Below, in pieces: positions 3,942-51,813 of a stretch of DNA of 64,000 bases. Positions within the stretch are counted from its first letter, which is position 1. Each line of letters begins with the position of its first letter. A program made the position numbers and the translations under genes. Origin of the DNA: a bacterium (lineage in GTDB: Bacteria > Myxococcota_A > Bradymonadia > UBA7976 > UBA1532); contig JAUHXC010000036.1 in assembly GCA_030427205.1 (NCBI GenBank), positions 16,185 to 80,184 on the forward strand. The letters run 5' to 3'. A model generated the notes under the pieces. That model did not search any database. It had not been told where the DNA came from and was given only the letters and a program-made list of their open reading frames with translations.

Positions 3942-3978
3942 GGGTCGTGGATCGGACAGCGCGGTCGGGTCGGCGCCG

Positions 3979-5182: not shown

Positions 5183-5701
5183 ATGCTGTCGGACCAGGCG
5201 CCGAGCGTCGGCGCGCGCATCATCACGCTGCGCTGTGATGCCGGGTTGCTCGTCAACCGCCACGCCCGCAGCCACAGCGCGGCGGAGTATCTGGCGGCGG
5301 TGGGCTCGACTGCCGGCCCCGACAGCGCCATGGCCGCCCGCGAGCTCTCCGCGGCGCTGTTCGAAGTCTTCGAGTGGGTCCATCATCGCGCGCCGACGGG
5401 CGCGGTCGTCGTCGGGCTGCGCGCGCTCGACGGGGGCGTGCGCATCGTGGTCGAGCTGCCCTGCGCGCCGGCCGCGGTGCCCGCCTGCCTGGCGTCGATC
5501 GCGCCGAGCGACGACGGCCGCGACCCGCTCGTCGACCCCGAGCCGGGGGATGGCCTGCGCGAGCTGGCGGCGGTGCACGGGGTGAAGCTCGGGGCGGCGG
5601 CGGTCGAGGGCGGCGTGCGGCTCGTCCTGCACGTGCCGCTCGGCGAGTCCGGCGAGCAGCGCGCGGACGGCGAGCGGGGGGAGGCCACCGGTGAGCGCTG
5701 A
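5183..5701 (+). CDS. GHKL/HATPase-like anti-sigma-factor-type protein with a degenerate N-box (kinase-like paralog)
   Basis: GGAGGAGG RBS 5 nt upstream of ATG 5183. Pattern AALFEVFEWVHHRAPTGAVVVGLRALDGGVRIVVELP parallels the NELVENAIKFG...VAVIVGL...LVMRVSN arrangement of the downstream kinase, but the conserved Asn is absent. Stop overlaps the next start. Confidence 0.6.
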   Translation: MLSDQAPSVGARIITLRCDAGLLVNRHARSHSAAEYLAAVGSTAGPDSAMAARELSAALFEVFEWVHHRAPTGAVVVGLRALDGGVRIVVELPCAPAAVPACLASIAPSDDGRDPLVDPEPGDGLRELAAVHGVKLGAAAVEGGVRLVLHVPLGESGEQRADGERGEATGER

Positions 5702-6872: not shown

Positions 6873-6926
6873 CCGACCCTTCGAGGAACCGATGACCCGC
6901 GCCGCCCCCCACCCACCGAGTCGCCG

Positions 6927-9296
6927 ATGCTGAAGGCCACCCGCCGTTTTCGCACCAAGCTCTTTCTCGTCGCCGGGCTGGGCGTCGTCATCGGGCTGTC
7001 GGCCAGCACGTTCGTGGCCCGCTACGGGGTCAACGTGCTCAGCCACGACGCGACGACCGAGCTGGAGGAGGGCCTGGGGCGGGCCACCCGCGAGTATCTG
7101 ACCAACCACGTCGCCGACGCGGCCACCCGCACGGGCTACATGCTCGGGCGGGCCCAGACCGACCTGCAGATCGCCGCGGGCATCGCCCAGGGCATCATCG
7201 ACCGCGGCGACAGCCTCGACCCGGTGCACGACGCGATCTCGCGGCTGCCCGGCATCGAGGACCGCCTGCGCTACGACGCCGAGGGCAACTGGTACCAGAA
7301 CCCCGACGACGAGCCGATGGCGGTGGCGGTCTGGGGTTATCTGCTCGGCGAGAAGCCGGCCGACGGCGGCCCGCCGCCGGTGCGGCCCGAGGTGCTCGAG
7401 GCGGTGCGCGAGACGGCGATCTACGATCTGATCGTGCCGCCGTTTCAGCGGAAGGGCAGCAGCAACCTGCAGGTGTACTTCGTCGGGCCCGAGGAGGCGC
7501 CCTTCCTGCGCATCGCCCCCTGGGCGCCGGCGGCGGCGCAGGCCGACAAGAAGTACCCCGGCCACAATCAGAAGCCGTTCTGGTCGTTCTTCTTCCCGAC
7601 GCTGGTCGACAGCTGGATGCAGTGGGTCGAGGCCGAGGGCGGGCCCGACGCCCGCCAGAGCCAGGTGACGGTGCTGCCGCCCTACGAGGACGCCGGCGGC
7701 GGCGGGCTGGTGACGACGTTCTTCCACCCGCTGTGGAGCCCCGACCGCAAGACCTTCGCCGGCGCGGTGGGCATCGACCTGACGCTCAACCAGATCGTCG
7801 ACTACATCAAGGACCAGAAGCTCTACGACTCGGGCTTCGCCTTCCTCGCGCAGTCGAGCGGCAACGTGCTGGCGGTCAACGCCGACGGCGAGCGGCTGCT
7901 GGGGCTGCGCCAGGCCAAGGGCGCCATCGGCGGCGGGGTCGACGTGCTCAGCCGCAGCCTCAGCGCCAGCGCCCACCGCTCGGTCGCCGAGCTGCAGCTG
8001 CCCCAGAGGGACGGGGCGACCTACACCGAGATCGGGATCGACGGCCAGATCCACGTGGTGGTGCTGCAGCGTATGGCGCCCTTCGAGATCTGGCCCGGTC
8101 AGCTGGGCATCGGCCCCGAGCACTGGACCCTGGGGCTGGTGGTGCCCGCCCGCGAGATCTTCGAGTCGCTGACCAAGGCCCGGGCGGCGATCGACGAGAG
8201 CGTCACGAGCATCTTCGCCCAGCAGACGGTGATCACCCTGCTGACGCTGCTGTCGGTGCTGCTCGGCATCTCGGTGCTCAGCCGGCGCATGACCGTCTCG
8301 CTCGACGAGCTGTCCGACGCGGCGCGGGCGATGAAGGGCAAGAACTACGACGTCGAGGTGCAGGTGCGCACCGCGGACGAGATCGGCGAGCTGGCGTTCG
8401 CCTTCAACGCGATGGCCGCCGAGATCAGGACCTACACCAACAACCTCGAAGAGCTGGTGCGTCAGCGCACCGCCGAGCTGGAGCGGGCCAACAGCGAGAT
8501 CTCGCTGCTCAACGAGCGGCTCAAGGAAGAGAACCTGCGCATGGGCGCCGAGCTGGCCGTCGCCCGCCGCCTGCAGCTGATGGTGCTGCCGGCGGAGTCG
8601 GAGCTGGCGAGCATCGCCGGGCTCGACATCGCCGGCTACATGGAGCCCGCCGACGAGGTGGGCGGCGACTACTACGACGTCTTGCAGGGCACCGGCGGGG
8701 TCAAGATCGGCATCGGCGACGTCACCGGCCACGGCCTCGAGAGCGGGGTCTTGATGATCATGCTGCAGGCGGCGGTGCGCACCCTGGTGCTCGCCGAGGA
8801 GCGGGACCCCGAGCGCTTCATGTCGATCATCAACAAGGCGGTCTACCAGAACATCCAGCGCACGGCGATCGACCGCTCGCTGACGCTGAGCCTGATCGAC
8901 TACGACGACGGCGTGCTGCAGCTCGTCGGGCAGCACGAGGAGGCCATCGTCGTGCGGGCCTCGGGCGCGGTCGAGCGCATCGACACCATGGCCCTCGGGC
9001 TGCCGGTGGGGCTCGACTTCGAGATCGACGACTTCCTCGGGCGCCTCGAGCTGCCGTTGGCGCCGGGGGATACGGTGCTGCTGTATACCGACGGCATCAC
9101 CGAGGCGGAGAACCCCGACGGCGAGCAGTACGGCCTCGACCGGCTGTGCGAGGCCGCCCGGCGGCACCACGCCTCTCCGGCGGCCGCGATCAAGGACGCC
9201 GTGATCGGCGACGTGGAGCGGTTCATCAATTTCCAGAAGGTCTTCGACGACATCACCCTGGTGGTGATCAAGCGCGAAGCAGAGGAGGCGGCGTGA
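6927..9296 (+). CDS. membrane sensor phosphatase: TM - periplasmic sensor domain - TM - HAMP - PP2C (SiaA/RsbU-like)
   Basis: N-terminal TM LFLVAGLGVVIGLSAS and second TM ITLLTLLSVLLGISVL. HAMP (DEIGELAFAFNAMAAEI). PP2C motifs GGDYYDV, GIGDVTGHG and YTDGITEAENPDG. Confidence 0.85.
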   Translation: MLKATRRFRTKLFLVAGLGVVIGLSASTFVARYGVNVLSHDATTELEEGLGRATREYLTNHVADAATRTGYMLGRAQTDLQIAAGIAQGIIDRGDSLDPVHDAISRLPGIEDRLRYDAEGNWYQNPDDEPMAVAVWGYLLGEKPADGGPPPVRPEVLEAVRETAIYDLIVPPFQRKGSSNLQVYFVGPEEAPFLRIAPWAPAAAQADKKYPGHNQKPFWSFFFPTLVDSWMQWVEAEGGPDARQSQVTVLPPYEDAGGGGLVTTFFHPLWSPDRKTFAGAVGIDLTLNQIVDYIKDQKLYDSGFAFLAQSSGNVLAVNADGERLLGLRQAKGAIGGGVDVLSRSLSASAHRSVAELQLPQRDGATYTEIGIDGQIHVVVLQRMAPFEIWPGQLGIGPEHWTLGLVVPAREIFESLTKARAAIDESVTSIFAQQTVITLLTLLSVLLGISVLSRRMTVSLDELSDAARAMKGKNYDVEVQVRTADEIGELAFAFNAMAAEIRTYTNNLEELVRQRTAELERANSEISLLNERLKEENLRMGAELAVARRLQLMVLPAESELASIAGLDIAGYMEPADEVGGDYYDVLQGTGGVKIGIGDVTGHGLESGVLMIMLQAAVRTLVLAEERDPERFMSIINKAVYQNIQRTAIDRSLTLSLIDYDDGVLQLVGQHEEAIVVRASGAVERIDTMALGLPVGLDFEIDDFLGRLELPLAPGDTVLLYTDGITEAENPDGEQYGLDRLCEAARRHHASPAAAIKDAVIGDVERFINFQKVFDDITLVVIKREAEEAA

Positions 9297-9820
9297 ACAT
9301 CGTCATCGGTGATTATCTCGACGATCTGACCCTCGATACGCAGCTCGAGCTCAACTTCCACCCCGAAGAGTTCCCGGTGCACTGGCGGCGGGCCGCGCTG
9401 ACCGCCGACTTCGCCGCGAGCTGGTTCGGCAACGTCGGCGACGGGGTGGCCGACGCGATCAGCTACGCGCTCAACGAGCTGGTGGAGAACGCCATCAAGT
9501 TCGGCACCGCCGGCCGGGTGGCGGTGATCGTGGGCCTCGCCGGCGACGAGCTGGTGATGCGGGTCTCCAACCGGCTGCCGCACAAGGACGTGCCCGCCCT
9601 GCGCGCGCTGCTCGAAGAGATGGTCAGCGAGGATCCGTGGGAGCTCATCGTCAAGCGGGTGGAGGCCAACGCCGCCGATCCGGAGAGCAGCCGCTCGGGG
9701 CTGGGATTTCTGACGCTGCTGACCGACTATGACGCCCGGCTCGGCTGGCGCGTGGCCCACGACACCGAGACCCACGCGTGCCTGCACACCCTCGTACGCC
9801 TCAAGACGAATGAAGGATGA
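9293..9820 (+). CDS. SiaB/RsbW-like small GHKL serine kinase (anti-sigma-factor-type HATPase)
   Basis: GTG 9293 after GAGGAGG, overlapping the upstream stop. Canonical N-box ALNELVENAIKFG. 175 aa. Confidence 0.75.
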   Translation: MNIVIGDYLDDLTLDTQLELNFHPEEFPVHWRRAALTADFAASWFGNVGDGVADAISYALNELVENAIKFGTAGRVAVIVGLAGDELVMRVSNRLPHKDVPALRALLEEMVSEDPWELIVKRVEANAADPESSRSGLGFLTLLTDYDARLGWRVAHDTETHACLHTLVRLKTNEG

Positions 9821-21778: not shown

Positions 21779-23314
21779 CTATCGCACCACCCGGCAGACC
21801 CCGCCGCGGCGCGCGTCGCCGGCGCCGTCGAGGGCGCCGTCGGCCGCCATGCGCGCGGTGTGCACCCCGCCGAAGAACAGGTGCGGCGCGGCGAACTCGA
21901 CGACCTCCCGGGCCAGCCCCGCCAGCGGCGGGTGCCCCTCGAAGACCTCCAGGCTCAGCGTACCGCCTTCGAAGTGCATGCGCGGCGCGTCGATCGCCGC
22001 GCGCACGTCGTCGTCGAAGCCGGCCAGCCGCACGACGGCCTGCAAGAGCGCCGTGCGGATGCGGTTGGCGCCGCCCGTGCCCAGGGCCACCAGCCCGCCG
22101 CCCGGCCCCTGCATCAGCGTCGGCGACATCATCGTCGCCAGCCGCTCGCCGACCGGCGCCTTGCCGAAGCCCTCGGGGTGCAGGTCCTCCTCGCCGAGCA
22201 GGTTGTTCATCACGATGCCGCTCTCGCCGATGAGCCGCCCGTTGCTCTCGCCGTGGCTGAACGTGATCGCGCAGGCGTTGCCCGCCCCGTCGATGGCGCT
22301 GACGTGGGTCGTCGACGGTGGCCCGCCGCCCATGCGCGGCGCGCCCAATGGCGCCTTGCCGGCCACCAGCCCGTTGAATCGCCGGCGCAGCGCCTCACGG
22401 GCGTCGGGCCCCAGCGCCGCGTCCCGCCGCGCCCCGTCGGCGACGGCCATCGCCGCCGCCAGCCGGCGCAGCCCGTGCGCGCTGCGCACATCCGGCGGCG
22501 GGCCGTCGCTGAGGAGATCGAGCATCAGCCCGATCATGCCGCCGCCCACCGCCGGCGGCGGCATCAGGTGCAGCGTATGCCCGCGCCACTTCACCGTCAG
22601 CGGATCGCGCAGCTCGACCCGGTAGCCGGCGCAGGCCTCGGCGGTGAACAGGCCGCCCGCCGCCGGCCCGAAGTCGCGGGCCATCGCCGGGCACAGCTCG
22701 GCGTCGTACCACGCCCGCCCGCCGCCGGCGGCCAGCGCCTCCAGCGTCTCGGCCAGGGCCGGGTTGACGAAGCGATGCCCCGCGGCCAGGTAGCGCCCGC
22801 CCGGCGCGAAGATCGCCCGGGTGGCCGCCTCGCGCACCAGGATCGGCTCGAGCAGCCGCGCCAGCCGGGCCTGGGCCGGCCCGATGATCGCGCCTTCGCG
22901 CAGCATGCGACACGCCGGCGCCACCAGATCGGACAGCGGCAGCGAGCCCCAGCGCTCGGCCGCGTCGAGCAGCCCGGGCAGGATGCCGGGCACCGCCGCC
23001 GAGCCGGCGCCGATGTGGAAGACCTGCTTGACCGGGCCGTAGTCCAACTCGATGGCGTCGAAGTCGTAGCCCTCGACCTCTTCGGCGCGCAGCGGCGGCG
23101 CGTCGGCGAAGCAGTCGACCACCGTCACCGCGCCGGTGGCCCCGTCGCGGTGCATCATCACCCCGCCGGCGGCGAGGCTGGTCAGCGTCGGCTCGCCGGC
23201 GTTGACCGCGAAGCAGGCCGCCACCGCGGCGTCGACCGCGTTGCCGCCGGCGGCGAGCACCGCCGCGCCGGCCTCGGCGGTCGGGATCGAACCGGCGGCG
23301 ATCACGCCCGGCAT
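21779..23314 (-). CDS. ggt: gamma-glutamyltransferase
   Basis: Catalytic Thr region TTHVSAIDGAGNACAITFSHGESNG. GAGGAG RBS before ATG 23314. The upstream 26 codons of the track ORF are not used. Confidence 0.85.
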   Translation of the reverse strand: MPGVIAAGSIPTAEAGAAVLAAGGNAVDAAVAACFAVNAGEPTLTSLAAGGVMMHRDGATGAVTVVDCFADAPPLRAEEVEGYDFDAIELDYGPVKQVFHIGAGSAAVPGILPGLLDAAERWGSLPLSDLVAPACRMLREGAIIGPAQARLARLLEPILVREAATRAIFAPGGRYLAAGHRFVNPALAETLEALAAGGGRAWYDAELCPAMARDFGPAAGGLFTAEACAGYRVELRDPLTVKWRGHTLHLMPPPAVGGGMIGLMLDLLSDGPPPDVRSAHGLRRLAAAMAVADGARRDAALGPDAREALRRRFNGLVAGKAPLGAPRMGGGPPSTTHVSAIDGAGNACAITFSHGESNGRLIGESGIVMNNLLGEEDLHPEGFGKAPVGERLATMMSPTLMQGPGGGLVALGTGGANRIRTALLQAVVRLAGFDDDVRAAIDAPRMHFEGGTLSLEVFEGHPPLAGLAREVVEFAAPHLFFGGVHTARMAADGALDGAGDARRGGVCRVVR

Positions 23315-23482
23315 CGGCAACTCCTCGTGCTCGGTTGGCAGGTCGGTCGGACGATCGGGGCAAAGACGCCCCGGCAGCCGCGCCGGTCGCACATGGCGGG
23401 CGGCGGTCGAAAGTTGTCAGGAGACTGACACATGCTGCCGCCCATCGACGGTAGTGCGGGCGCTCTGCCGATCAACGAGCGA

Positions 23483-24082
23483 TCAGCACCGCCGCTGGTG
23501 ACAGGCCTCGCCGTCGGCCAGGCTCAGTCGGTCGGCGATGTGCCCGACGACCCGGTCGACCTGCTCGGCGAGCCCATAGGCCGCCGGCCCGTCGATCTCC
23601 TGCCAGGCGAAGCGGTCGTCGTCGCCGCAGCCCGACCACAGGCTGTATCCCCAGCGGCTCTGGGCGCCGGGCGGGCTGCGCCAGAAGTCGACGTAGAGGT
23701 GTCGGCGGTCGCAGAAGACGTGGTTGCCCGGGTCGAGCAGGCCCGGCTCGTGCACCACGTCGGTCATCACCGCGGGGTGGGTCCGGCGCAGGGCGAGCGC
23801 GAAGCCCTCGGCCATCAGCTCGTCGGTCTGCAGCTCGGGGTCGGGCAGCGGGCGGCTGACGTCTTTGAAGGTGACCACGTCGAAGTAGCGGTGCCCGTCG
23901 AGCCGGATGGCGAAAGGCGAGTAGCGATGGGTGGGCGCGTCGGCGGCGGCCGCGGCGCCGGCCTCGTGGGCCGAGGCGCCGGGCGCGTCCGCCGTCGCGA
24001 CCGTCGTCGACGCCCGCTCCCCGTCGGAGCGGCTGCAGCCGGCGAGGGCCAGGGCGGCGACGAACAATGGGATGAATCGCAT
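23483..24082 (-). CDS. lipoprotein, hypothetical
   Basis: MRFIPLFVAALALAGCS lipobox at aa 13 of the track ORF. GC3 bias. Confidence 0.6.
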   Translation of the reverse strand: MRFIPLFVAALALAGCSRSDGERASTTVATADAPGASAHEAGAAAAADAPTHRYSPFAIRLDGHRYFDVVTFKDVSRPLPDPELQTDELMAEGFALALRRTHPAVMTDVVHEPGLLDPGNHVFCDRRHLYVDFWRSPPGAQSRWGYSLWSGCGDDDRFAWQEIDGPAAYGLAEQVDRVVGHIADRLSLADGEACHQRRC

Positions 24083-24291
24083 GGGCCGATGGTCTCCACA
24101 GACGGCCGTTCGAGTCAACGTCGCGCTGCGCGTCGCTGTTCCGAAAACGCCCTACGTACCCGGCGCCGCCGCGCTCCAAAAAAAGTGCATCCGGCCGATC
24201 TCTCCTGCCACAAGGGCGTCAGGAGGGGTGCGCTAAAATCATCCTCGTCAACTGGAAGAACGCCGCACGTCGGCCACACGAGGAGGTCCCC

Positions 24292-25104
24292 ATGGAGCGC
24301 TCGACCCGCCTGTCCCGCCTGCTGCAGATCCTGCACGCCCGGCCCATGACCCCGGTCGAAGAGCTCGCCGCCCGCCTGGGGGTGAGTGACCGCACCATCT
24401 ACCGCGACCTGGAGAGCCTGCGCAACGACGGGGTGCAGGTCGCCCGCAAGGCGCGCTTCGGCTACGCGGTGGGCGAAGACGATCCCAACGCGCTCGATCT
24501 GGGCCGCGACGAGCTCGACGCGCTCGCGCTCGGGGTGCAGATGGTCAACGCCTGGGGCGACCCGGCGCTGGCCGCCGCCGCGGTGCGCATGGTCGACAAG
24601 ATCGCCGGCGCGCTGTCCCGCGACGCCCAGAGCGCGCTCGACCGCACCCCGCTCGGCGCCTCGCGGGCGCGGCACAAGTTCAAGCGCGTCGCCGGCCTCG
24701 GCAAGCTGCGCCAGGCACTCACCGAGAAGCGCAAGCTCTACTTCCGCTACAGCGACCACGAGGGCCACAAGAGCGAGCGTGTCGTGCAGCCGCGCAGCCT
24801 GGTCTTCCGCGGCGATCACTGGTCGCTGCTGGCGTGGTGCGAGATGCGCGAGGAGTACCGCAGCTTCCGCCCCGAGCGCATGGCCGACGTCTGCGTGATG
24901 GCCGAGCGCTTCCAGCCCTTCGACGCGCCGCGCCGCCCCGGCGCCCGCAGCCCGAGCCAGGACCGCCGCGCCGCCGAAGCGGCCGGGCTCTACGACGCCG
25001 CCGCGGCCCACGACGCCGCGCTCGAGGCGGCGGCGCTCGACGCCGAGCTCGGCGCCGCGCTCGACGAAGCCGACGCCCTCGACCCGGTCAAGCGCTCCGC
25101 CTGA
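24292..25104 (+). CDS. HTH + WYL-domain transcriptional regulator (YafY/BrxR/CapW-like)
   Basis: N-terminal HTH (LSRLLQILHARPMTPVEELAARLGVSDRTIYRDLESL). WYL region YFRYSDHEGHKSERVVQPRSLVFRGDHWSLLAWCEMREEYRSFRPERM. Confidence 0.8.
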   Translation: MERSTRLSRLLQILHARPMTPVEELAARLGVSDRTIYRDLESLRNDGVQVARKARFGYAVGEDDPNALDLGRDELDALALGVQMVNAWGDPALAAAAVRMVDKIAGALSRDAQSALDRTPLGASRARHKFKRVAGLGKLRQALTEKRKLYFRYSDHEGHKSERVVQPRSLVFRGDHWSLLAWCEMREEYRSFRPERMADVCVMAERFQPFDAPRRPGARSPSQDRRAAEAAGLYDAAAAHDAALEAAALDAELGAALDEADALDPVKRSA

Positions 25105-25212
25105 GCCTGCATCCGCGGGGCGTTTGGCATGCTGTTCCTTCGTGATTTTTGAGTCTGTTTGGTATATTCGGGTATCAAACTGCATGAGCGGTACATTTTA
25201 TGCGGGGCGCAC

Positions 25213-26529
25213 ATGTTGCTTGAGTTCCGAGTCGCCAACTTTCGCTCATTCGCGGAGGAGCAGGTGTTCTCGTTCGTGGCTGACAAGGACGACACACATC
25301 TGCGGAACACCATGCGATGTGAGCAGTCGCCAACTGGACGGGTGATCCGCTTGGCGGTGTTGTATGGACCGAACGGAGGCGGCAAGAGTGCGCTGGCTCG
25401 TGCGTTGGCAGTCACCCGCGCGATCGTCGTGAATTCTGCTCGCTGGCAAGACGGGGATCCTCTGGGCTTGGAGCCCTTCAAGCTTGACCCCGCACTGCAG
25501 TTGGCGCCGAGCCGATTCGAGTTGACCTTCGTTACCGATTGGACGGATCCCGAAGACCCGACGACGACGCGTCCGATCCGATATCAATACGGCTTCGCTG
25601 CTGATGCACGAAGAGTCCACGAGGAGTGGCTGCTGGCTTACCCCCACGGGCAACCGCAGACCTGGTTCGAACGAAGCACGGATGGGGTTGAGTTCGGCCG
25701 GCACTTGAAGGGTGAGAAGAAGCGAATTGCTGATGCGACGCGAAGCAATGCGCTCTTCTTGTCGGTGGCAGCACAGCAGAACCAATCCCAGCTGCTCCCG
25801 GTGTTTCGATGGATAAGAACTCGCGCTCGGGCGATCGGCGTCGTTGGTGAGCATTTCCTGGGTGAGTCGGTGACACGCCGAATGCCACTGGCGTCGGGTC
25901 GCACGAGCGAGGTGCTACAGCAGGGCACTGATGAGACCCGAGCGTACATCCTCGACTATCTCCGCGAGGCAGATGTTGGCATTCACGACGTCCGCCTCGA
26001 ACGGAGTCGCTTCGATGCGGCTGCATTGCCACCCGACTTCCCGGCTGAACTGAGAAGCCTCGTACTCGAGCAGGAGCGTGATGTCGTCGAAGTTCGTACT
26101 CTGCACCAAGCGCGAGATGGTCGAACCATCGAGTGGAGCCTAGCTGACGAGTCCGAAGGTACCCAGAACCTATACTGCTTGTTGGGGCCGTGGTTGGATA
26201 CCCTCCACTTGGAGCAGTCAGTCTTCTTCGACGAGTTGTTCAGTGATCTCCACGCTGTGCTCGCACGGCGGTTGTTGGAGCGCTACTTCGAGGAAGCCGC
26301 ACACAAGGGAAGTACGGGCCAGATCCTGCTCACCACCCATGACACGAATCTGCTCGATTCGCGGTTGCTCCGCCGCGACCAGATCTGGTTCGTGGAGAAG
26401 AACCGCGACGGCGCGTCGCGTTTGTACTCGTTGCTCGAATATCGCCCCCGAAAAGGCGAGAACTTCGAGAAGGGCTATCTGTCGGGCCGATACGGCGCAT
26501 TGCCCTTCATCGGCGAGGTCAACTTCTGA
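25213..26529 (+). CDS. AAA_21/ABC-type ATPase, AbiLi/OLD-family-like (abortive-infection ATPase component)
   Basis: N-terminus MLLEFRVANFRSF. Walker A LYGPNGGGKSALARAL, Walker B SVFFDELFSDLH, H-loop ILLTTHDTNLLD. The first ATG of the track ORF (which starts at TTG 25159). Confidence 0.85.
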   Translation: MLLEFRVANFRSFAEEQVFSFVADKDDTHLRNTMRCEQSPTGRVIRLAVLYGPNGGGKSALARALAVTRAIVVNSARWQDGDPLGLEPFKLDPALQLAPSRFELTFVTDWTDPEDPTTTRPIRYQYGFAADARRVHEEWLLAYPHGQPQTWFERSTDGVEFGRHLKGEKKRIADATRSNALFLSVAAQQNQSQLLPVFRWIRTRARAIGVVGEHFLGESVTRRMPLASGRTSEVLQQGTDETRAYILDYLREADVGIHDVRLERSRFDAAALPPDFPAELRSLVLEQERDVVEVRTLHQARDGRTIEWSLADESEGTQNLYCLLGPWLDTLHLEQSVFFDELFSDLHAVLARRLLERYFEEAAHKGSTGQILLTTHDTNLLDSRLLRRDQIWFVEKNRDGASRLYSLLEYRPRKGENFEKGYLSGRYGALPFIGEVNF

Positions 26530-27143
26530 TGCCGAGGGCGCGCAGCAAGCGAAGTCTCGGGCGGCGCAAAGACAGTCGAAGTGGTCGGCGCATACTCATC
26601 GTCTGCGAGGGCCAGGAGACCGAGCCTCGCTACTTCCGGGCCCTTCGGAGCGAGCTGAAGCTGGGCGCAGTTGATGTTCAGGTCGAGGGTGAGGATTGCG
26701 GTAGTGCGCCGATCTCGGTCGTCGACTTCGCGCTACGGCTCAAGAAGCGACCCCCGCGCGGGGTGAGCTACGATGCGGTCTGGTGTGTCATCGACCGTGA
26801 CGGGCACCAGAGCTTCGACAAGGCCATCGACAAGGCCCAAGCTCATGGCATCCGAATGGCGGTGTCGGTGCGTCAGTTCGAACTGTGGCTCCTGCTGCAC
26901 TTTGCCTACACCACCCGCGTTTGGACCGACGGCGATAGCTTGCTGAAAGCACTGGCTGCCCACTTGCCAGAGTACGGCAAGGGCACGGATGTGGCTGCGG
27001 CCCTGCGCCCGCTACGGCCCGCCGCATTAACCAATGCCGAGCGGCTGCGCGTGCACAACGCCGCGGTCAGCGACCAGCCCTATCCCAACCCGATGACCGA
27101 CGTCGACTTGTTGGTGCTCTTCCTCATCGGCCTCAAGCCCTGA
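26529..27143 (+). CDS. RloB-like protein (AbiLii-like; predicted nuclease partner)
   Basis: Hallmark RILIVCEGQETEPRYF near the N-terminus. ATG overlaps the ATPase stop (TGATG). Confidence 0.8.
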   Translation: MPRARSKRSLGRRKDSRSGRRILIVCEGQETEPRYFRALRSELKLGAVDVQVEGEDCGSAPISVVDFALRLKKRPPRGVSYDAVWCVIDRDGHQSFDKAIDKAQAHGIRMAVSVRQFELWLLLHFAYTTRVWTDGDSLLKALAAHLPEYGKGTDVAAALRPLRPAALTNAERLRVHNAAVSDQPYPNPMTDVDLLVLFLIGLKP

Positions 27144-27149
27144 AACCGC

Positions 27150-28931
27150 TCACCACACCCGCTGCCCGCGGCCGTCCCACGGCGCGCCGTCGTTGCCTTC
27201 GATGGGTACGCCGTCGGGGTCGGTGACGAAGTTGCCCAGGTCGCCGAAGGCCCGCTCGCGGTTGACCGACTCACCGGCCTGACGCATCGGCGCGCGCGCG
27301 CCGCCGCGCTCGATCTCGATCACGTCGTGGGGCCCGGGGCGCAGGTCGACCAGCGCGCCCTTGCGCTTGGGGTTGAGCAGCTGCTCCTCGTTGCCGATGG
27401 GGTCGGCGACGGTCTTGGCCTTGAGCGTCCAGACCAGCAGCGACGTCGGATCGCGATCGGGGAAGCTGCCGGCGAGCAGGTCGGCGTAGCCGTAGTACTG
27501 CTTGCCGACGTCGTTCTGGTTGACTGGCCCGGCCATCAGGCAGATACCCGCCAGCAGATCGCAGTCCTCGGGCAGGTTCACCACGCCCATCAGCTCGGCG
27601 ACCAGCGCGCCGCGGGCGGCGGCGGCGCCGAACGCGCGGATGGCGGCGTGCCAGTCGAGGCCGTTGTCGGCCATCTCGTTCTTGCAGAGCCCGCCGATGT
27701 AGATCCGCTGGCCGACGAGCGCGAAGGCCTTGCGCCCGCGCTCGGCGTTGCGGCTGAAGGCGCGGCCGGTGGGCAGGTCGGCCCACAGGGGCATGTCGGC
27801 GACGACCCGATCGGTGATCGCGTTGAGCTCGCCGCGGATGGCCCGCAGCCGGGCCTTGCCGCCGTCGGTGAGCACGTCGACCCGGTCGAGCATCAGCAGC
27901 CGGCGGGCCAGCTCGCGGTCGAGGCCGGTCCAGTGCTCGAAGGCGTTGTAGGCCGCCCGGCCGGCCATCTCGACCAGCGCCGGGGGCACGTCCATCTCCT
28001 GGCGCAGCTGGTAGGGCGCCGGCGCGGCCTCCTCCTGGTTGACGCCCGGCTGGATGCGCTCGCTGCGGAACGCGAGCAGGTTGGCGCCCAGCTTGCGCGC
28101 GGTGGTCTCGTCGAGCGCGATGCGCTCGGCGGGCAGCGCCTCGCCGACCTGGGTCACCAGCGCCAGCCGCCAGCCCGCCAGCCGCTCGCGGCGGGTGAGG
28201 CCGCACAGGGCCTCCAGCTTGCGGATGGTCGCCTTGTTGCGCCGCGCCGCCTCGCCGACGAAGGGCCGCATGAACGCCTGGGCCCGCCGCCGCCCGGCCG
28301 AGGCGATGACCGCCGCCCGCTCCATGGCGTCGGCCAGGATGCCCACGTGCAGGTGCGGCAGGTAGCCGATGGTCGGGATGTCGTCGATGAACTGCGTGCG
28401 CTTGCGGACCGCCCGCAGCGCCACCGTCGCCAGGCTGCGGATCGGCTTGTGGCCCACCAGGGTCAACAGCATCGTGAACGGGTTGCGATAGGGCACGCCC
28501 ACGACGAGGTGGGCATAGCCCGCGCCGTCGAGCGGCGGGGCCTCGATGCCGTCGAGCTGGCGCAAGAGGCCGGCGAGCGCGCTCTGTCGCTCGGGGCCGA
28601 GGGTCACCTGGCGGAAGCCGCGGTAGTTGGTCGACTGCCGCGCGCTGAGCACGCCGAGCGCGCACTCCTCGAACAGCTCGCCCTCGGTGACGGGCTGGGG
28701 CTCGGCGAAGCCGGTGGGCCGCGGCATCGACAGCAGCACCAGCCCCTGGCGGGCTTCGTCTTCGGTCATCGGGACCCGCGTGCGGTAGCCCACCGGCGAG
28801 GCGGAGTCGAGGCCGCCGGGCAGGGTGTAGCGGGTCTTGCGCTCGCCGGGGGCGGCGAAGCGGGCCTCGCGCCGGGGCCGAGGGCTCGGCGGCGGGTCGA
28901 TCGGGGTGACCTGGAGGGGCTTGTGGGGCAT
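27150..28931 (-). CDS. conserved hypothetical protein (about 590 aa), function not recognised
   Basis: Long ORF with strong GC3 bias. ATG at 28931 (aa 21) or 28991. No motifs I can name with confidence. Confidence 0.55.
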   Translation of the reverse strand: MPHKPLQVTPIDPPPSPRPRREARFAAPGERKTRYTLPGGLDSASPVGYRTRVPMTEDEARQGLVLLSMPRPTGFAEPQPVTEGELFEECALGVLSARQSTNYRGFRQVTLGPERQSALAGLLRQLDGIEAPPLDGAGYAHLVVGVPYRNPFTMLLTLVGHKPIRSLATVALRAVRKRTQFIDDIPTIGYLPHLHVGILADAMERAAVIASAGRRRAQAFMRPFVGEAARRNKATIRKLEALCGLTRRERLAGWRLALVTQVGEALPAERIALDETTARKLGANLLAFRSERIQPGVNQEEAAPAPYQLRQEMDVPPALVEMAGRAAYNAFEHWTGLDRELARRLLMLDRVDVLTDGGKARLRAIRGELNAITDRVVADMPLWADLPTGRAFSRNAERGRKAFALVGQRIYIGGLCKNEMADNGLDWHAAIRAFGAAAARGALVAELMGVVNLPEDCDLLAGICLMAGPVNQNDVGKQYYGYADLLAGSFPDRDPTSLLVWTLKAKTVADPIGNEEQLLNPKRKGALVDLRPGPHDVIEIERGGARAPMRQAGESVNRERAFGDLGNFVTDPDGVPIEGNDGAPWDGRGQRVW

Positions 28932-29007
28932 GGGGCGTCTCGTCTGGCCGTGGCGGCGCACGCTGTAGGCCAGCGGGGGGGCCGCGGTCAAGCCCCGTGA
29001 GCGGGTA

Positions 29008-30270
29008 TCACTGGCTCGCGGTGCCCACGGTGAGGGTCAGCGCGCGGTGCTCGACGCCGCGGATGAGCTTCAACGGGACCGCCGTGCCCGGTCGGGTGGC
29101 GGCCACCAGCCAGGGCAGGGCCTCGGGATCGTCGACGGCGTGCTCGCCGTAGGACAGCAGCAGATCGCCGGGTTCGAGGCCGGCGGCGTGGGCCGGGCCG
29201 CCTTCGACGACGCCGCGCACCCGCACGCCGCGGCGGCGCTTGAGGCCGGCGGCGCGGGCCATCTTGGTGGTGACCCGGCCGGTGTAGAGGCCGGCGAAGC
29301 CGCGGGCGAAGGTGCCGTCGGCGATGAGCCGCTCGGCGACGGTGCGCACCATGTCGATGCGGATGGAGAAGGTGAGCTTGCCGTCGACCACTGCGGTATT
29401 GAGCCCGACCACCCGGCCGCGGGTATCCACCAGCGGGCCGCCCGAGCTGCCCGCGGCCACCGCCACGTCGCTCTGGATGAACTCGGCCAGCTTCGGCGCG
29501 CCGGGCGGCAGCGAGCGCCGGCCCACCGCGCTGACGACGCCGACGGTGATCGAGTGGGCCATGCCCTGAGGGTTGCCCACCGCCGCGACCCAGGCCCCCG
29601 GGCGGACCTCGTCCACCGGCGCGAGGGCGACCGGCGGCAGGCCAAGCGCGCCGGGGTCGATCACCGCCAGATCGGTCGCCGCGTCGAGCCCCACCAGCCG
29701 GGCCCGGGTGACCCGGCCCTCCTGGGTGCGCACCCGGATGCGCGGCGCGTCGCCGATGAGGTGGGCGTTGGTGACGATGTGCCCGTCGCTGTCCCAGGCG
29801 AAGCCGGTGCCGGTGCGATCGGCCTGGAAGCGGCCGTCGATGAGCTGCCCCGCGACCACCCCGACCACCGAGGGGGCGACCGCGTCGAAGACGGCGGCGA
29901 AGTCGGGGCCGCCGACCGTCTCGGTCTTGAGCGGCGCGCGTGGCCGAACGCCGCCGCTGCGCACCCGCTTGCGCGGTCGGGCCTCGGCCTTCGGCGGGGG
30001 CGGGGGCGGCGAGGCCGCGGGCGCGTCGTCTTCGGTGTTCTGCGGTGCAGGCGGGGTGTCGATCGGGGGCGGCGCGGCCGGCGCGCTCGGCGGCTCGGGC
30101 GCGGCGGAGGGCGGCGGCGCGGCGGTCGGCGGTGCGGAAGAGGGCGGCGCATCGGGCGCGCAGCCGAGCGGCGCCGTGAGCGACAGCGCCGTGAGCGACA
30201 GCGCCGTGAGCAGCGGCGCCGTGAGCCGCAGCGCCGTGAGCCGCAGCGCCCGGGGCAGGCCCCGGTTCAC
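29008..30270 (-). CDS. HtrA/DegP-family trypsin-like serine protease with C-terminal PDZ domain; lipoprotein-type signal
   Basis: Catalytic triad context TNAHLIG, DLAVI and GSSGGPLVD. PDZ motif GVRVRGVVEGGPAHAAGLEPGDLL. Signal peptide ends APLGC. Confidence 0.85.
   Translation of the reverse strand: MNRGLPRALRLTALRLTAPLLTALSLTALSLTAPLGCAPDAPPSSAPPTAAPPPSAAPEPPSAPAAPPPIDTPPAPQNTEDDAPAASPPPPPPKAEARPRKRVRSGGVRPRAPLKTETVGGPDFAAVFDAVAPSVVGVVAGQLIDGRFQADRTGTGFAWDSDGHIVTNAHLIGDAPRIRVRTQEGRVTRARLVGLDAATDLAVIDPGALGLPPVALAPVDEVRPGAWVAAVGNPQGMAHSITVGVVSAVGRRSLPPGAPKLAEFIQSDVAVAAGSSGGPLVDTRGRVVGLNTAVVDGKLTFSIRIDMVRTVAERLIADGTFARGFAGLYTGRVTTKMARAAGLKRRRGVRVRGVVEGGPAHAAGLEPGDLLLSYGEHAVDDPEALPWLVAATRPGTAVPLKLIRGVEHRALTLTVGTASQ
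30173..30250. repeat. 15-bp tandem repeat (gccgtgagcgacagc x5, imperfect) inside the HtrA signal-peptide coding region
   Basis: Encodes LTALRLTAPLLTALSLTALSLTAPL on the minus strand. Confidence 0.7.
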
Positions 30271-30605
30271 CGGCCGCCGGCGTGACGCAGGAACTTCATC
30301 CGCAGGTCGTAGAGCACGCTGCCGAGCAGCTGCTCCTCTTCGAGGGTCAGGTTGCCGGCGGTCTTCTCTTTGAGCACGACCAGCGTATCGATGGTGTGGC
30401 GGGCGGCGTCGAGGTCGCGCTCGTCGTCGGGCACCCCGTCCATCTCGCCGAGGTGCATCAGCGCCATGGCGTTGAGCGAGATGATGTGCGTCGAGAACGT
30501 CATCTCGCGCAGGGTGCGGCTCTTGAGCGCTTCGGGCCCCCCGTCGGTCTCGGGGGTGTCGACGATGCGGCCGGTGCGGTCCTTGTCGGTCATCGGCGGC
30601 TCCAT
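30267..30605 (-). CDS. DUF1844-like small protein
   Basis: FSTHIISLNAMALMHLGE resembles the DUF1844 family common in Myxococcota. Alternative ATG at 30593. Confidence 0.55.
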   Translation of the reverse strand: MEPPMTDKDRTGRIVDTPETDGGPEALKSRTLREMTFSTHIISLNAMALMHLGEMDGVPDDERDLDAARHTIDTLVVLKEKTAGNLTLEEEQLLGSVLYDLRMKFLRHAGGR

Positions 30606-30641
30606 CGAAGGGGCGGGCGCCCCGTGGGGTTCAGCGGTGGA

Positions 30642-30842
30642 TCACTCGTTCTCGCCGGTGTCCTTGGCCTTGACGTCGGCCAGGCCCACCGAGGCGACCT
30701 CGATCTCGACCTTCGCCGCGCGGCTGCTGATGTCGGGCAGGTCGGCGAGCGACTTGTCGAAAGCGGCCTGTTCGACCAGGCCGCGCTCAATGTGGCGGCG
30801 CACCAGGCGCTTGTCGAGCAGCTTGTCTTCGGGCACGTTCAT
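30642..30842 (-). CDS. small hypothetical protein (66 aa)
   Basis: Strong GC3 codon bias over 201 nt. The rest of the 235-aa track ORF overlaps the moxR gene and is rejected. Confidence 0.5.
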   Translation of the reverse strand: MNVPEDKLLDKRLVRRHIERGLVEQAAFDKSLADLPDISSRAAKVEIEVASVGLADVKAKDTGENE

Positions 30843-31074
30843 CGGGACCTCGCTGGTCTGGGTGAGCAAGCGCCGAATGATGGGGTCCGAAGCGGTCTGC
30901 GTCAAGCGCTCGCCGATCGTTCGCGTGCGTTCGCCGTCGAGCGGCCGATCCGGGCGCCGGGGAATGCGCCGGGTACGATCGTGGGTTGACAGCGGCCGCG
31001 ACGTGTTTAAGAAGCGGCCCGCCGGCATGATCGCGCCAGCGTCAGATCGTCTTCGAGATTTTGGGAGGTCCCGC

Positions 31075-32070
<996 letters not shown>

Positions 32071-32077
32071 CCGCATC

Positions 32078-32958
<881 letters not shown>

Positions 32959-32962
<4 letters not shown>

Positions 32963-34164
32963 TGCGGCAGCTCTCCTGGTCGATCGCGCTGGCGGCGCTG
33001 CTGCTCGGGCCCGCGCTGGCCCAGACGCCCGATACGCCGGCCATGCCCAAGACGCCGCCGGTCGCGGCGCCCACCCCGGACGCCGAAGATACGCCCGAGG
33101 CGCCCGCCGAGCCCGCCGGCCCGCCGCCGGCCAAGGGCCCACCGCCCGCCATCAAGATGCAGTGCGCGCCGAACCCCGTGCGCATCGGCGAGCGGCTGGT
33201 CTGCACCCTCACCGCCGTGCACCGCGCCGACGTGAGCATCGAGGTCACCGCGCCCGAGCGCTTCGAGGTGGGCGAGCCGACGCCGGCGAAGACCCGGGAC
33301 GACGGCCTGCTCGAGACCGTGCGCGCGCTCACCGTGCGCCCCGACTCGATGCGCAAGGTGCGGGTGCGCGGGCTGCAGGTGGTCTACACCGAGGCCAGCG
33401 GCGGCCAGGGCACCATGGCGGTGCCCGACCAGATCGTGCCCACCAGGAGCGTGATCGCCGGCACCGACCAGCCGACGTTCCGCACCTTCGAGACCCCCGG
33501 CGGCGGCGTCGAGGGCCAGGACGGCCCCAATGTGGCCGACGGCTACTTCGCCCGCCACGGGCCGCTGCCCTATCGGGTCTTCAACTGGCCGCTGTTCATC
33601 GCGCTGTGCGTGCTCGGCGGCGTCGGCCTCGGTATCGGCGTCGGGGTGCTCGTCAAGCGCTACCTCGACGCCCGGCGCATCGACCCCGGCCCGCCGGTGG
33701 ACCCGCGGCCGGCCCACGTCATCGCGTATGCCGAGCTCGAGGCGCTGCTCGCCTTGAACCTGCCCGCCGACGGCCGGGTGGGCGAGTTCTACGTGCGCCT
33801 GTCGGAGATCGTGCGCCGCTATCTCGGCCGCCGCTTCGGCATCGACGCCCCCGAGATGACCAGCGACCAGATCCGGGCCTGGGCCACCCTGCAGGGCGAG
33901 CGCTTCGGCGCGGAGGTGCGGCTGGGGCTCGACGACTTCCTGGCCGAGACCGACCTGGTCAAGTTCGCCGACTTCAGCCCGACCGAGTCCGAGATCAGCA
34001 CCGTGACCCGCCAGGCCCGCGGCCTCATCTCGCTGACCCGGGTGCCCGACGCCGGCGGCGAGCCGAGCGCGCCGGCCCCGTCCGCGCCCGCCGCCGAGCC
34101 GCCGGCCAGCAAGCACGCGCCCGCCGAGCCGCCGGTCTCCCTCGAAAAGGGGGACGACGCATGA
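32959..34164 (+). CDS. secreted/membrane protein of Bat-like operon (hypothetical)
   Basis: Signal peptide, Pro-rich linker, internal TM LFIALCVLGGVGLGIGVGVLV. ATG overlaps DUF58 stop. Confidence 0.7.
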
Positions 34165-42443: not shown

Positions 42444-42472
42444 TTGGCGATATTTTTCACTCTTGCTGTATA
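42444..42472 (+). promoter_or_regulatory. putative sigma70-type promoter in an AT-rich patch (TTGGCG-N17-TGTATA) upstream of the tail-fibre-like gene
   Basis: The only strongly AT-rich stretch for kilobases (gctatttttacatttggcgatatttttcactcttgctgtataggg). RBS GAAGGAG just before ATG 42490. Confidence 0.25.
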
Positions 42473-42489
42473 GGGTGAAGGAGCCGGAC

Positions 42490-44949
42490 ATGCGCATCTC
42501 CTCCCTTCGGACTCTCGTGGTCCTGGCCGCGCTCGGCGCGCTGCTCGCGCCCGCGGCGGCGTGGGCCCTGCCCGATCACATCTTGCAGGAGGGCCTGCTG
42601 CTCGACGCGGACGAGCTGCCGCTCGAGGGTCAGCACCGGCTGCGGGTGCGCCTGTACCCGACCGCGGCCGGCGGCGCGCCGATCTTCGAGGAGGTCCACC
42701 CGGCGGTGGTGGTCTTCCAGGGCTACTACGCCATCGCGATCGGCAGCGAGCAGGCGCTGCCACCGGGGCTCTTCGGTCAGCCGGAGCTGTACCTCGGGTT
42801 GTCGATCGACGGCGGGGCCGAGCTGACGCCGCGCACCGCGCTGAGCAAGGTGCCGGCGGCGTTTCATGCCGATGTCGCCGTCGACGCGGTGGGGGACATC
42901 CACCCGACGTCGGTCAGCATCGGCGAGCGGCAGGTGATCGACGGCAACGGCCGCTGGGTGGGTGATCCGACCGGGCTGCGCGGGCCGCAGGGACCGCGGG
43001 GGCCGGCGGGCGCCGAAGGGCCGCAGGGGCCGGAGGGCCCGCGGGGCGCGGCGGGCGGTGACGGCTCGCCGGATACCCCGCAGCAGGTGCGCGACAAGCT
43101 CGTGCAGGCCGACGGGGCCGGCTCGGGGATCGACGCCGACCTCTTCGACGGGCTCAACAGCAACCAGTTCGTGCGCACCGCGGCGCAGGTGCGCGATCTG
43201 CTGCGCACGGTGGACGGGGCCGGCTCGGGGGTGGACGCCGATCGCTTCGACGGGCTCGACAGCAGCCAGTTCGTGCGCACGGCGGCGCAGGTGCGTGATC
43301 TGCTGCGCACGGTGGACGGGGCCGGCTCGGGGGTGGACGCGGATCGGCTCGACGGCGTGGACAGCAGCCAGTTCGTGCGCACCGCCAATCAGGTGCGCGA
43401 CCTGCTGCGTACGGTGGACGGGGCCGGCTCGGGGGTCGACGCCGACCGCCTCGACGGGCTGGACAGCAGCCAGTTCTTGCGCGCGGACGGCAACGTCACC
43501 ATCAACGGCAACCTGACCGTCAACGGCACGATCAGCAGCCCGCAGCCCACGAGCCTGAAGGTCTTCAGCGGCAACAACCCGCCGGCGGCCTGCAACGGCG
43601 GCAACCGCGGCATGCTGTACTACGACACCAACGACGGGGTCTTCATGGGCTGCAACGGCGCGGCGTGGATCCCGCTGAGCGGCGCGGGCCAGGACAGCCT
43701 CGGCCGGGGCAACGTGCAGGTCAGCGGGCACTTCGGCGATACCCGCTCGACGCCCAACGGCTGGAGCAACCTGCCCGGGCGCGACGTGACGTTCAACAAG
43801 CGGCGGGCCGACACCGTGCTGCGGGTGACGTGGCAGGACGTGCTCGGCTACCACATGGTGGGCCACGGCTGGGGCTGCCGCTGGCGCTTGACCATCGACG
43901 GCGCGGTGCACGATCGGGCGGTCAACAGCCACACCAGCACCGCCCGCGGCTGGCGCATCCAGCCGATTCAGCAGGAGTGGATCGTGCAGGGTCTGGGCGC
44001 GGGCAACCACCGCTACCGGATCCAGCTCTATCGGCCCGACAGCAATACTTCGAGCGAGTGCCTGGCCGGCTGGCCCAACGGCGACACCCACAACTTCATC
44101 GCCGTCGAAGAGGTCGAGCCGGGCAACATCGCCGTCGCCCGCCACTTCGGCGATACCCGCTCGTCGCCCGGCGGCTGGGGCGACCTGCCCGGGCGGGCGA
44201 TCACCATCACCAAGGACCGCGACGATACCTACCTGCAGATCAGCTACCAGGACGTGCTGGGCTATCACATGGTGGGCCACAGCTGGGGCTGCCGCTATCG
44301 GCTGACGATGAACGGGCAGGCCGTCGATCGCACGTTCAGCCAGCACACCGGCAGCACCCGCGGCTGGCGCATCGACCCGCGCAACCTGACCTGGGTCATC
44401 GACGGGGTCAACCGCGGGCAATATACCTTCCGCATCCAGAACTACAGACCCAACGCCGGCTCGACCAGCGAGTGCCTGGCGGGTTGGCCCAACGGCGATA
44501 CGGCCAACCACCTCAGCGTGCGCGAGCTCGACCGGGATACGATCTCGATCCGGCGGCATATGTCCGATCGGCGCGATACGCCCAACGGCTGGAGCTATCT
44601 GCCCGAGCGCGACGTCAGCCACGTCAAGCAGGCCGGCGGCACCCGGATCCGGGTCACCTACATGGACACCCTGGGCTATCACATGGTGGGCCACGGCTGG
44701 GGCTGCCGCTGGCGGCTGGTGGTCGACAACAACGCCTACGGGCGGCCGATCAATACCCACACCAGCACCGGCCGTGGCTGGCGCATCGACCCGACCCGGC
44801 TCGAGTGGATCGTGCCCAACCTGGGGGCGGGCAATCACCGCTATCGCATCCAGCTCTATCGCCCGTCGGCTAATACGTCGAGCGAGTGCCTGGCCGGCTG
44901 GCCCAACGGCGAGACCGGCAACTTCTTGATGGTGCAGGAGGTCGACTGA
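42490..44949 (+). CDS. secreted collagen-like / phage-tail-fibre-repeat protein with three 138-aa C-terminal beta-rich repeat domains
   Basis: Signal peptide LVVLAALGALLAPAAAWA. Ten Gly-X-Y triplets (GLRGPQGPRGPAGAEGPQGPEGPRGAAGGDG). Four copies of the 35-aa repeat DGAGSGVDADRLDGLDSSQFVRTAAQVRDLLRTV, a phage tail-fibre-type motif. Three repeats of HFGDTRS.PNGW..LPGR...GYHMVGHGWGCRWRL...NHRYRIQLYRP...SECLAGWPNGDT. Confidence 0.85.
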   Translation: MRISSLRTLVVLAALGALLAPAAAWALPDHILQEGLLLDADELPLEGQHRLRVRLYPTAAGGAPIFEEVHPAVVVFQGYYAIAIGSEQALPPGLFGQPELYLGLSIDGGAELTPRTALSKVPAAFHADVAVDAVGDIHPTSVSIGERQVIDGNGRWVGDPTGLRGPQGPRGPAGAEGPQGPEGPRGAAGGDGSPDTPQQVRDKLVQADGAGSGIDADLFDGLNSNQFVRTAAQVRDLLRTVDGAGSGVDADRFDGLDSSQFVRTAAQVRDLLRTVDGAGSGVDADRLDGVDSSQFVRTANQVRDLLRTVDGAGSGVDADRLDGLDSSQFLRADGNVTINGNLTVNGTISSPQPTSLKVFSGNNPPAACNGGNRGMLYYDTNDGVFMGCNGAAWIPLSGAGQDSLGRGNVQVSGHFGDTRSTPNGWSNLPGRDVTFNKRRADTVLRVTWQDVLGYHMVGHGWGCRWRLTIDGAVHDRAVNSHTSTARGWRIQPIQQEWIVQGLGAGNHRYRIQLYRPDSNTSSECLAGWPNGDTHNFIAVEEVEPGNIAVARHFGDTRSSPGGWGDLPGRAITITKDRDDTYLQISYQDVLGYHMVGHSWGCRYRLTMNGQAVDRTFSQHTGSTRGWRIDPRNLTWVIDGVNRGQYTFRIQNYRPNAGSTSECLAGWPNGDTANHLSVRELDRDTISIRRHMSDRRDTPNGWSYLPERDVSHVKQAGGTRIRVTYMDTLGYHMVGHGWGCRWRLVVDNNAYGRPINTHTSTGRGWRIDPTRLEWIVPNLGAGNHRYRIQLYRPSANTSSECLAGWPNGETGNFLMVQEVD
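43111..43485. repeat. near-identical 105-bp tandem repeats x3.5 (35-aa tail-fibre-type units)
   Basis: DNA copies differ at only a few positions. Confidence 0.8.
43729..44946. repeat. three diverged 414-bp (138-aa) tandem domain repeats
   Basis: Repeat boundaries at aa 414, 552 and 690 of the protein. Confidence 0.75.

Positions 44950-49629: not shown

Positions 49630-51813
<2,184 letters not shown>

Follow-up and report, generated by a model that had tools for sequence, protein, structure and literature searches.

We found a two-gene cassette of about 2 kb in a 64-kb window (the window is the whole stretch of 64,000 nucleotides that was analysed) of a high-GC chromosome. Its best overall explanation, at a probability of roughly three in four, is a horizontally acquired AbiL-type anti-phage cassette with a mechanism resembling those of PARIS and OLD; the identity of the pair and its insertion carry the most weight in this estimate. 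The pair is almost certainly an AbiL-family (RloA/RloB-type) two-gene system, and it was very probably inserted recently at this site. As such, the locus is a divergent AbiL pair from a family that is already catalogued, both in PADLOC and in the literature, and is very common. The initial annotation had read the locus as an AbiL module inserted in a high-GC chromosome, and this reading is supported here except on how far GC falls and on the relevance implied for a neighbouring WYL regulator.

Location, composition and identity of the gene pair

Two open reading frames lie on the plus strand of the window, one at 25213-26529 encoding a protein of 438 aa (gene 1; abiLi, an rloA-like ABC ATPase of the AAA_21 family) and one at 26529-27143 encoding a protein of 204 aa (gene 2; abiLii or rloB, a Toprim-like putative nuclease). 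The coordinates and the one-base overlap first described for these same-strand genes are borne out by the sequence, in which the stop/start overlap TGATG is seen directly at 26527-26531 (plus strand). The same overlap is present in three related copies (L082, L251 and L252), and we infer that translation of the two genes is coupled through it. The stop codon of gene 1 is at 26527-26529, and thus the ATPase and the Toprim protein are separate open reading frames.

The GC content of 25105-27149 is 60.6% compared to 72.6% for the whole window, and this is the lowest-GC 2-kb stretch in the 64 kb, approximately 4.3 SD low relative to sliding windows of 2,045 bp (mean 72.7%, SD 2.8%). The low-GC islet that had been noticed is therefore real, but the 52-55% GC given for it was wrong, since the genes have 59.6% (25213-26529) and 64.2% (26529-27143) and the sole part near 52% is the 108-bp spacer at 25105-25212 (51.9%). 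Base-level comparison with an empty site places the foreign DNA at about 25118 to 27146, slightly inside the coordinates 25105-27149 first given. GC3 is 70.6% in gene 1 and 78.5% in gene 2 compared to 92-97% in every neighbour, including 95.9% in the WYL gene on the left flank and 97.1% in the gene for a 593-aa protein on the right flank. The host-rare codons mentioned in the initial annotation are also present: codons used fewer than 2 times per 1000 in the host make up 15.6% of gene 1 and 13.3% of gene 2, whereas 34 host genes average 2.2% and none of them exceeds 7.0%.

The gene 1 product matched the AbiLi model of PADLOC (PDLC02335; E = 3.1e-85, 284 bits, residues 1-436), and the gene 2 product matched AbiLii (PDLC02337; E = 1.8e-25) and no other PADLOC family. 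Profile searches with Pfam, which had been proposed as a check, were significant for both proteins and above the gathering cut-offs: gene 1 matched AAA_21 (PF13304) with 84.3 bits (E = 2.1e-23, profile positions 1-304 of 304; cut-off 27 bits), and gene 2 matched RloB (PF13707) with 135.7 bits (E = 3e-39, profile positions 1-192 of 195; cut-off 31.5 bits) as its sole Pfam family. With the two genes adjacent on the same strand and the ATPase first, these matches give the complete AbiL arrangement of PADLOC, and the AbiLi/AbiLii architecture recognized earlier is confirmed by both models.

The ATPase and the RloB protein

In an alignment of 35 homologues, the Walker A residues G52, N54, G57 and K58, the Walker B residue D340 and the H-loop residue H376 are invariant in the gene 1 family, as is a signature-like motif, E313-S314-x-G316-T317. 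The C-terminal tail of AbiLi (residues 412-438) is likewise invariant and might tether the nuclease. The motifs reported for gene 1 before this analysis (MLLEFRVANFRSF, GPNGGGKS, VFFDE and TTHD) were all found in the translation, and the ATG start at 25213 is backed both by an invariant M1-L2 in the 35 homologues and by an independent gene call. When an AF2 model of the gene 1 product (pLDDT 86.7) was searched with Foldseek, the best matches were PtuA, Rad50, SMC heads and OLD (probability 1.00, E = 6e-10 to 5e-8) at TM-scores of only 0.35-0.47, and the predicted fold is that of a Rad50/SMC-type ABC head. Searches of PDB sequences with the ATPase, by single sequence and by profile, gave only weak matches to the P-loop and the signature. 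Taken together, these results show that gene 1 encodes what is, judged by its sequence, an AAA_21-family ABC ATPase with all nucleotide-binding motifs intact.

The hallmark claimed for RloB, ILIVCEGQETEPRYF, was located in the translation of gene 2. Across 56 aligned RloB homologues, the glutamate of the CEG motif (E27) is nearly invariant, D89 is invariant, position 91 is D or E, and the block F117-E118-x-W120...H124 is invariant. In the structural model of gene 2, E27 is placed after a strand at residues 21-26 and D89-R-D91 ends a strand at residues 83-90, which corresponds to the Toprim arrangement of a glutamate after beta1 and a DxD/E motif ending beta3. A sequence-profile match to a solved Toprim protein was not obtained: the RloB profile gave nothing meaningful against PDB sequences (best E = 0.03, a de novo designed protein), and a single-sequence search of PDB sequences gave no match. 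These results show that gene 2 encodes an RloB protein with a Toprim-type acidic site (E27, D89-x-D91 and E118) and a putative nuclease role.

Between the window and the L082 copy of the pair, dN/dS is 0.087 for gene 1, for which dS is near saturation, and 0.20 for gene 2. These low ratios show that both genes are under purifying selection and hence are maintained.

Proposed mechanism and relation to known systems

Among the systems that combine an ABC ATPase with a TOPRIM protein, AbiL is grouped with PARIS, OLD, Gabija and MADS (PMC11464382; PMC12409363). The AbiL prototype comes from the Lactococcus lactis plasmid pND861 (Deng et al. 1999, as cited in PMC13064643); phage resistance that needs both genes is reported only for this prototype, according to the account in that review, in which the lactococcal AbiL proteins are also predicted to be a Rad50-type ATPase and a Toprim protein like that of OLD (PMC13064643). 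The pair in the window resembles lactococcal AbiL in having two overlapping genes in the same order, an AAA_21 ATPase followed by an RloB/Toprim protein, and in matching both PADLOC models. It differs in that its ATPase and the product of a lactococcal prophage gene with the annotation 'abortive phage resistance protein' are only about 27% identical (99% of the protein aligned), in that it is chromosomal, in a 73% GC genome of the myxobacterial type rather than on a low-GC plasmid, and in that it is known here from its sequence alone.

RloA and RloB are cited as components of type I restriction-modification loci in Campylobacter jejuni (Miller et al. 2005, as cited in PMC13064643 and PMC10440598). 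Gene 2 belongs to the same Pfam family (RloB), and the ATPase partner is annotated RloA in one plasmid match; however, the cassette lies outside an hsd locus, and the surrounding genes are housekeeping genes rather than restriction-modification genes. No hsd family was present among the Pfam families listed for the window proteins (25 of 44 families in one listing), and an RloAB system within a type I restriction-modification locus was rejected on this ground.

PARIS is the best-understood mechanistic template, with a sensor hexamer and a released tRNase: a hexamer of AriA keeps AriB sequestered until it senses a phage protein, and the AriB then set free cleaves tRNA (PMC11464382; PMC12409363). 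[quoted passage not shown] However, gene 2 is an RloB protein that matches only AbiLii in PADLOC and RloB in Pfam, and not a DUF4435-type AriB, which excludes membership of PARIS; AbiLii is also described as superposing poorly on AriB (PMC13064643). In OLD and GajA proteins (P2 Old, Thermus scotoductus OLD and class 2 OLD) the ATPase and the Toprim domain are fused, whereas here they are separate proteins, and the single-chain OLD classes 1 and 2 are ruled out by the two open reading frames and the stop codon that ends the first. Gabija is likewise excluded, since no UvrD-like GajB helicase is adjacent and the flanking genes are those for the WYL and 593-aa proteins.

By analogy with PARIS (AriA/AriB) and P2 OLD, an oligomer of the ATPase would bind the nuclease, hold it inactive and serve as the infection sensor. 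A phage-derived cue, together with ATP binding or hydrolysis, would then free or activate the Toprim nuclease, which would cut host or phage nucleic acid, and the infected cell would stop growing before phage release. Such abortive infection, with the PARIS-like logic of a sensor and a sequestered nuclease, is reasonably probable for this pair on the strength of its relatives; a 2026 review states that a PARIS-like working of AbiL and RloAB remains to be determined (PMC13064643).

Recent results on PARIS and OLD make tRNA somewhat likelier than DNA as the target of the nuclease, and by this analogy we slightly, and only tentatively, favour tRNA. P2 OLD has been reported as a tRNase, and Gabija acts on DNA. 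The effector of AbiL might instead work like Gabija or a class 1 OLD and nick or degrade phage (or host) DNA rather than RNA, in which case no release from a storage complex would be needed. The best structural matches of the gene 2 model include the DNA-cutting nucleases GajA and class 2 OLD, a Vibrio class 1 OLD is described in one report as a DNA nickase (PMC12392090), and the N-terminal tail of AbiLii (residues 1-21), which is basic and rich in R and K, would suit nucleic-acid binding of either kind. However, PARIS AriB and P2 OLD, the best-studied relatives with a determined cellular target, cut tRNA and leave DNA intact, and the locus has no UvrD-type helicase partner; an effector of this DNA-cutting kind is possible but rather unlikely. 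The pair in the window adds a divergent high-GC member toward this question of whether the RloB Toprim protein cuts tRNA or DNA.

Related copies and family context

In the closest genome in the collection, GCA_030426085.1 (L082), whose orthologue of the 593-aa gene shows 84% identity, an AbiL pair with 77% identity lies about 32 kb from that orthologue on the same contig, with different neighbours and no WYL gene. The homology found by blastn between the window and this copy covers window positions 25200-27143 only, and direct alignment extends it through a leader of about 75 bp. These alignments delimit what the two copies have in common, namely the leader and both genes as far as the stop codon of gene 2. 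The leader (25135-25212, plus strand) is AT-rich and was carried with the cassette; relative to the L082 leader it has the conserved blocks TTCGYGATT, ATATTCGG and AAACTGCATGA, a 16-nt indel and a mean column identity of 76%. It also contains a -10-like TATATT at 25163-25168, and we infer that it is a putative promoter and ribosome-binding region. In two further high-GC contigs (L251 and L252), pairs with the same TGATG overlap encode ATPases that are 63% and 50% identical to that of gene 1 and again have different neighbours; GC3 of these pairs is 75-82% compared to 93-95% in their flanks.

At a threshold of E <= 1e-10, at least 1,905 homologues of the ATPase were found (8,000 candidates scored), and confirmed relatives lie in 457 metagenome and 299 viral or prophage stretches. 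Relatives also occur in 180 plasmid records (one of them with the RloA annotation) and in 10 phage records, one of which is the lactococcal prophage gene mentioned above. An RloB gene is directly downstream on the same strand in 136 of 162 AbiLi-family loci, and most of the loci without it belong to the most distant family members. The commonest neighbours of the pair across the family are phage integrases (11/105) and P2-type terminase, portal and replication genes, and the AbiL family therefore usually travels on integrative elements. The copy in the window, unlike this usual context, has no integrative-element genes beside it. Since AbiL/RloAB pairs occur in thousands of genomes, plasmids and prophages, one more pair has little consequence for defence-system biology.

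The pair could also be mainly a selfish type II toxin-antitoxin (addiction) module, with the Toprim protein as toxin, the ATPase as antitoxin and no meaningful anti-phage role here; it would then persist because cells that lose it die. Toprim toxins are neutralised by their AAA partners in toxicity assays, and pairs of AAA and TOPRIM_OLD proteins have been validated in this way (PMC10440598); in addition, the cassette stands alone among housekeeping genes rather than in a defence island, and the bare two-gene unit spreads to different sites. However, the founding AbiL, PARIS and OLD all confer phage resistance, and members of the family are over-represented on prophages and integrative elements, where they sit at positions typical of defence cargo; a mainly addictive function is improbable. 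The toxin-antitoxin and anti-phage roles are not mutually exclusive.

Insertion site and the WYL regulator

The cassette lies between the gene for an HTH-WYL (YafY-family) regulator (24292-25104, plus strand) and the conserved gene for the 593-aa protein (27150-28931, minus strand), which is 60-84% identical in 80 Myxococcota/Bradymonadia genomes. The initial annotation had asked whether these two flanking genes are directly adjacent in relatives, and they are: in five contigs without the AbiL pair, L244 and L245 (WYL 89% identical in both) and L247, L249 and L250 (WYL 80% in all three), the convergent gene for a protein of 593-607 aa directly follows the WYL gene. These contigs, which come from near relatives, were reached through WYL homologues at 80-92% identity, as look-ups of exact copies of the WYL protein and of the 593/613-aa protein had given no match. 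The longest run in window order is in L244, with a 196-aa gene, the WYL gene, the 593-aa gene, an HtrA-like protease, DUF1844 and a MoxR/VWA operon, and L245 additionally has a gamma-glutamyltranspeptidase gene upstream. In a scan of the 80 genomes with the 593-aa gene, no empty site was found, and the sole window neighbour beside that gene was one HtrA match at 35% identity.

The alignment with L244 defines the insert to the base. Window positions 22413-25117 align with L244 positions 46-2713 and window positions 27147-34000 with L244 positions 2712-9483, at 83-86% nucleotide identity, and L244 holds no counterpart of 25118-27146. In L244 only 12 bp separate the stop codons of the convergent WYL and 593-aa genes; the window therefore carries approximately 2,029 extra bases (25118-27146), comprising the leader and the two plus-strand genes, inside that spacer. 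Deviant composition and an empty site in relatives, the two marks of horizontal acquisition, are thus both present. The outcomes that the initial annotation had set against its own reading were a lack of profile matches, or a host-like pair kept at this position in all relatives; instead, relatives have the same flanks without the pair, and its composition is not host-like.

The marks of a classical genomic island or integrative element were absent. A tRNA search of the whole 64-kb window found none, no integrase was found among the flanking genes with Pfam profiles, and a repeat search gave only the short or imperfect matches expected in GC-rich DNA, none of which marks the borders of the insert and none of which exceeds 4 bp there. 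The earlier statement that integrase, tRNA and direct repeats are missing at the flanks therefore holds, the borders sharing only the 4-bp CCGC at 25113-25116 (left) and 27146-27149 (right). CCGC occurs once in the 12-bp spacer of L244 and may hint at a short target duplication or a microhomology junction, and four bases in 73% GC DNA could match by chance. Since the cassette has no mobility gene, it was probably integrated as a DNA fragment without a recombinase, through illegitimate or microhomology recombination. Such a recombinase-free, precise insertion is neat and unsurprising, and it provides a well-documented case of the gain of a defence pair without mobility genes at a base-precise empty site, which is useful for studies of how small cassettes spread.

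The pair was correctly described as lying immediately 3' of the WYL regulator, but that position does not make the regulator part of the module. One could regard the WYL gene and the AbiL pair as a single three-gene, WYL-controlled defence unit of the BrxR or CapW type, since the WYL gene directly precedes the pair in the same orientation, no strong terminator separates them, and the WYL product matches the WYL model of PADLOC (5.9e-46). However, the composition of the WYL gene is that of the host (GC3 95.9%), orthologues of it stand at this position in the five AbiL-free contigs, and the genes upstream of the cassette in L082, L251 and L252 are unrelated. A single weak WYL match turned up across the 162 AbiLi-family loci, and WYL was not among the 25 most frequent of the 99 families that neighbour these loci. 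A conserved WYL-regulated defence operon was rejected, as WYL is not kept beside AbiL pairs, and a three-gene unit at this locus is very improbable. From its host composition, its presence at AbiL-free sites and its lack of linkage to AbiL pairs elsewhere, the WYL gene is a native neighbour separate from the module, and the adjacency is not to be read as regulation. A consensus promoter scan between the WYL gene and the pair gave no site above threshold, and terminator-like sites were weak or inside genes; with no convincing terminator or promoter there, read-through from the WYL gene into the pair is possible. The presence of a WYL gene beside a defence module may thus be a coincidence, which calls for caution in annotation through guilt by association.

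Least probable of all is that the pair is ancestral at this site and that the relatives have lost it. Only a handful of relatives were examined at the site and all belong to other species (nucleotide identity 78-86%). However, the GC3 and codon use of the pair are far from those of the host, and the related copy in the closest genome sits elsewhere on its contig. The empty sites of two separate lineages also have spacers of different length (12 bp and 159 bp), and it is unlikely that base-precise deletions happened twice independently.

The one base-precise empty site, the three other copies at unrelated sites and the shared leader raise the speculative possibility, which we regard as rather doubtful, that an AbiL sub-family circulates in high-GC Myxococcota as a self-contained 2-kb mini-cassette made up of two coupled genes and a leader or promoter of its own, entering tiny spacers between convergent genes by recombinase-free illegitimate recombination at the level of microhomology. 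If true, defence genes could move in a minimal way that differs from carriage on islands, prophages or transposons.

Within about 5 kb of the cassette are housekeeping genes, namely those for a P450, a gamma-glutamyltranspeptidase, an HtrA-like protease and DUF1844 and a MoxR/VWA operon. The cassette is not in a defence island, as the other PADLOC matches in the window are single proteins with generic domains. A RecQ-type helicase about 23 kb away is taken to account for the matches to DpdF and PsyrT, and a nucleotide cyclase for those to PycC.

Conserved tail of AbiLi and leader of the AbiL cassette

Across the family, few regions vary as little as the C-terminal tail of AbiLi, the ABC ATPase of the AbiL pair (residues 412-438, PRK...GYLSGRYGALPF; positions 26446-26526), in which P412, R413, Y422, G425, R426, Y427, G428 and P431 are all invariant. 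In the monomer model, disorder is predicted for this tail, with pLDDT below 50. The tail is a candidate docking peptide, either for the RloB partner or for an adjacent protomer.

In the leader of the cassette, comparison with the 77%-identical copy on L082, the contig of a relative that carries AbiL at another site, revealed a 16-nt AT-rich insertion in the window copy (CGGTACATTTTATGCG, 25189-25204), which lies directly upstream of the ribosome-binding region. A weak stem-loop at 25179-25192 overlaps this insertion.

Insertion site and flanking genes

In relatives with 80% identity, the counterpart of the insertion site is a spacer of 159 bp between the WYL regulator gene and the 607-aa gene (8772-8930 of L247, a contig lacking the AbiL pair), in which an AGTCAT(C) motif occurs about six times. 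In contrast, the counterpart of this spacer in L244, another contig without the pair, is only 12 bp, which shows that the insertion site is variable among relatives even where AbiL is absent.

On the left flank, the C-terminus of the WYL protein is a low-complexity tail rich in Ala, Asp, Glu and Leu (residues about 215-270, 24940-25104); in the DNA that encodes it, short and imperfect repeats lie in tandem (24999-25064). Several WYL orthologues are shorter (225-256 aa), and the matches span only 80-84% of the protein in the window.

On the right flank, the 593-aa gene (27150-28931, minus strand) returned no match when Pfam, NCBIfam and PADLOC were searched. Its homologues, with 60-84% identity, are encoded by 80 Myxococcota/Bradymonadia genomes, and in the close relatives examined it adjoins an HtrA-like protease gene and a DUF1844 gene. 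It looks like a conserved, clade-specific gene without an assigned function.

Other genes of the window

Pfam gave no match at E <= 1e-5 for two long ORFs of host composition, at 316-2169 (minus strand, 617 aa) and 42463-44949 (plus strand, 828 aa). A RecQ helicase of 1,108 aa (49630-52956, minus strand) contains DEAD, Helicase_C, RecQ_Zn_bind, RQC and HRDC domains, preceded by an N-terminal extension of about 420 aa without a Pfam match. This helicase is probably the source of the window's strong PADLOC matches to the DpdF (1e-174) and PsyrT (3e-102) models, for which the output gives no protein name; no partner genes were seen for it. At 0.85, its GC3 is lower than that of any other host gene.
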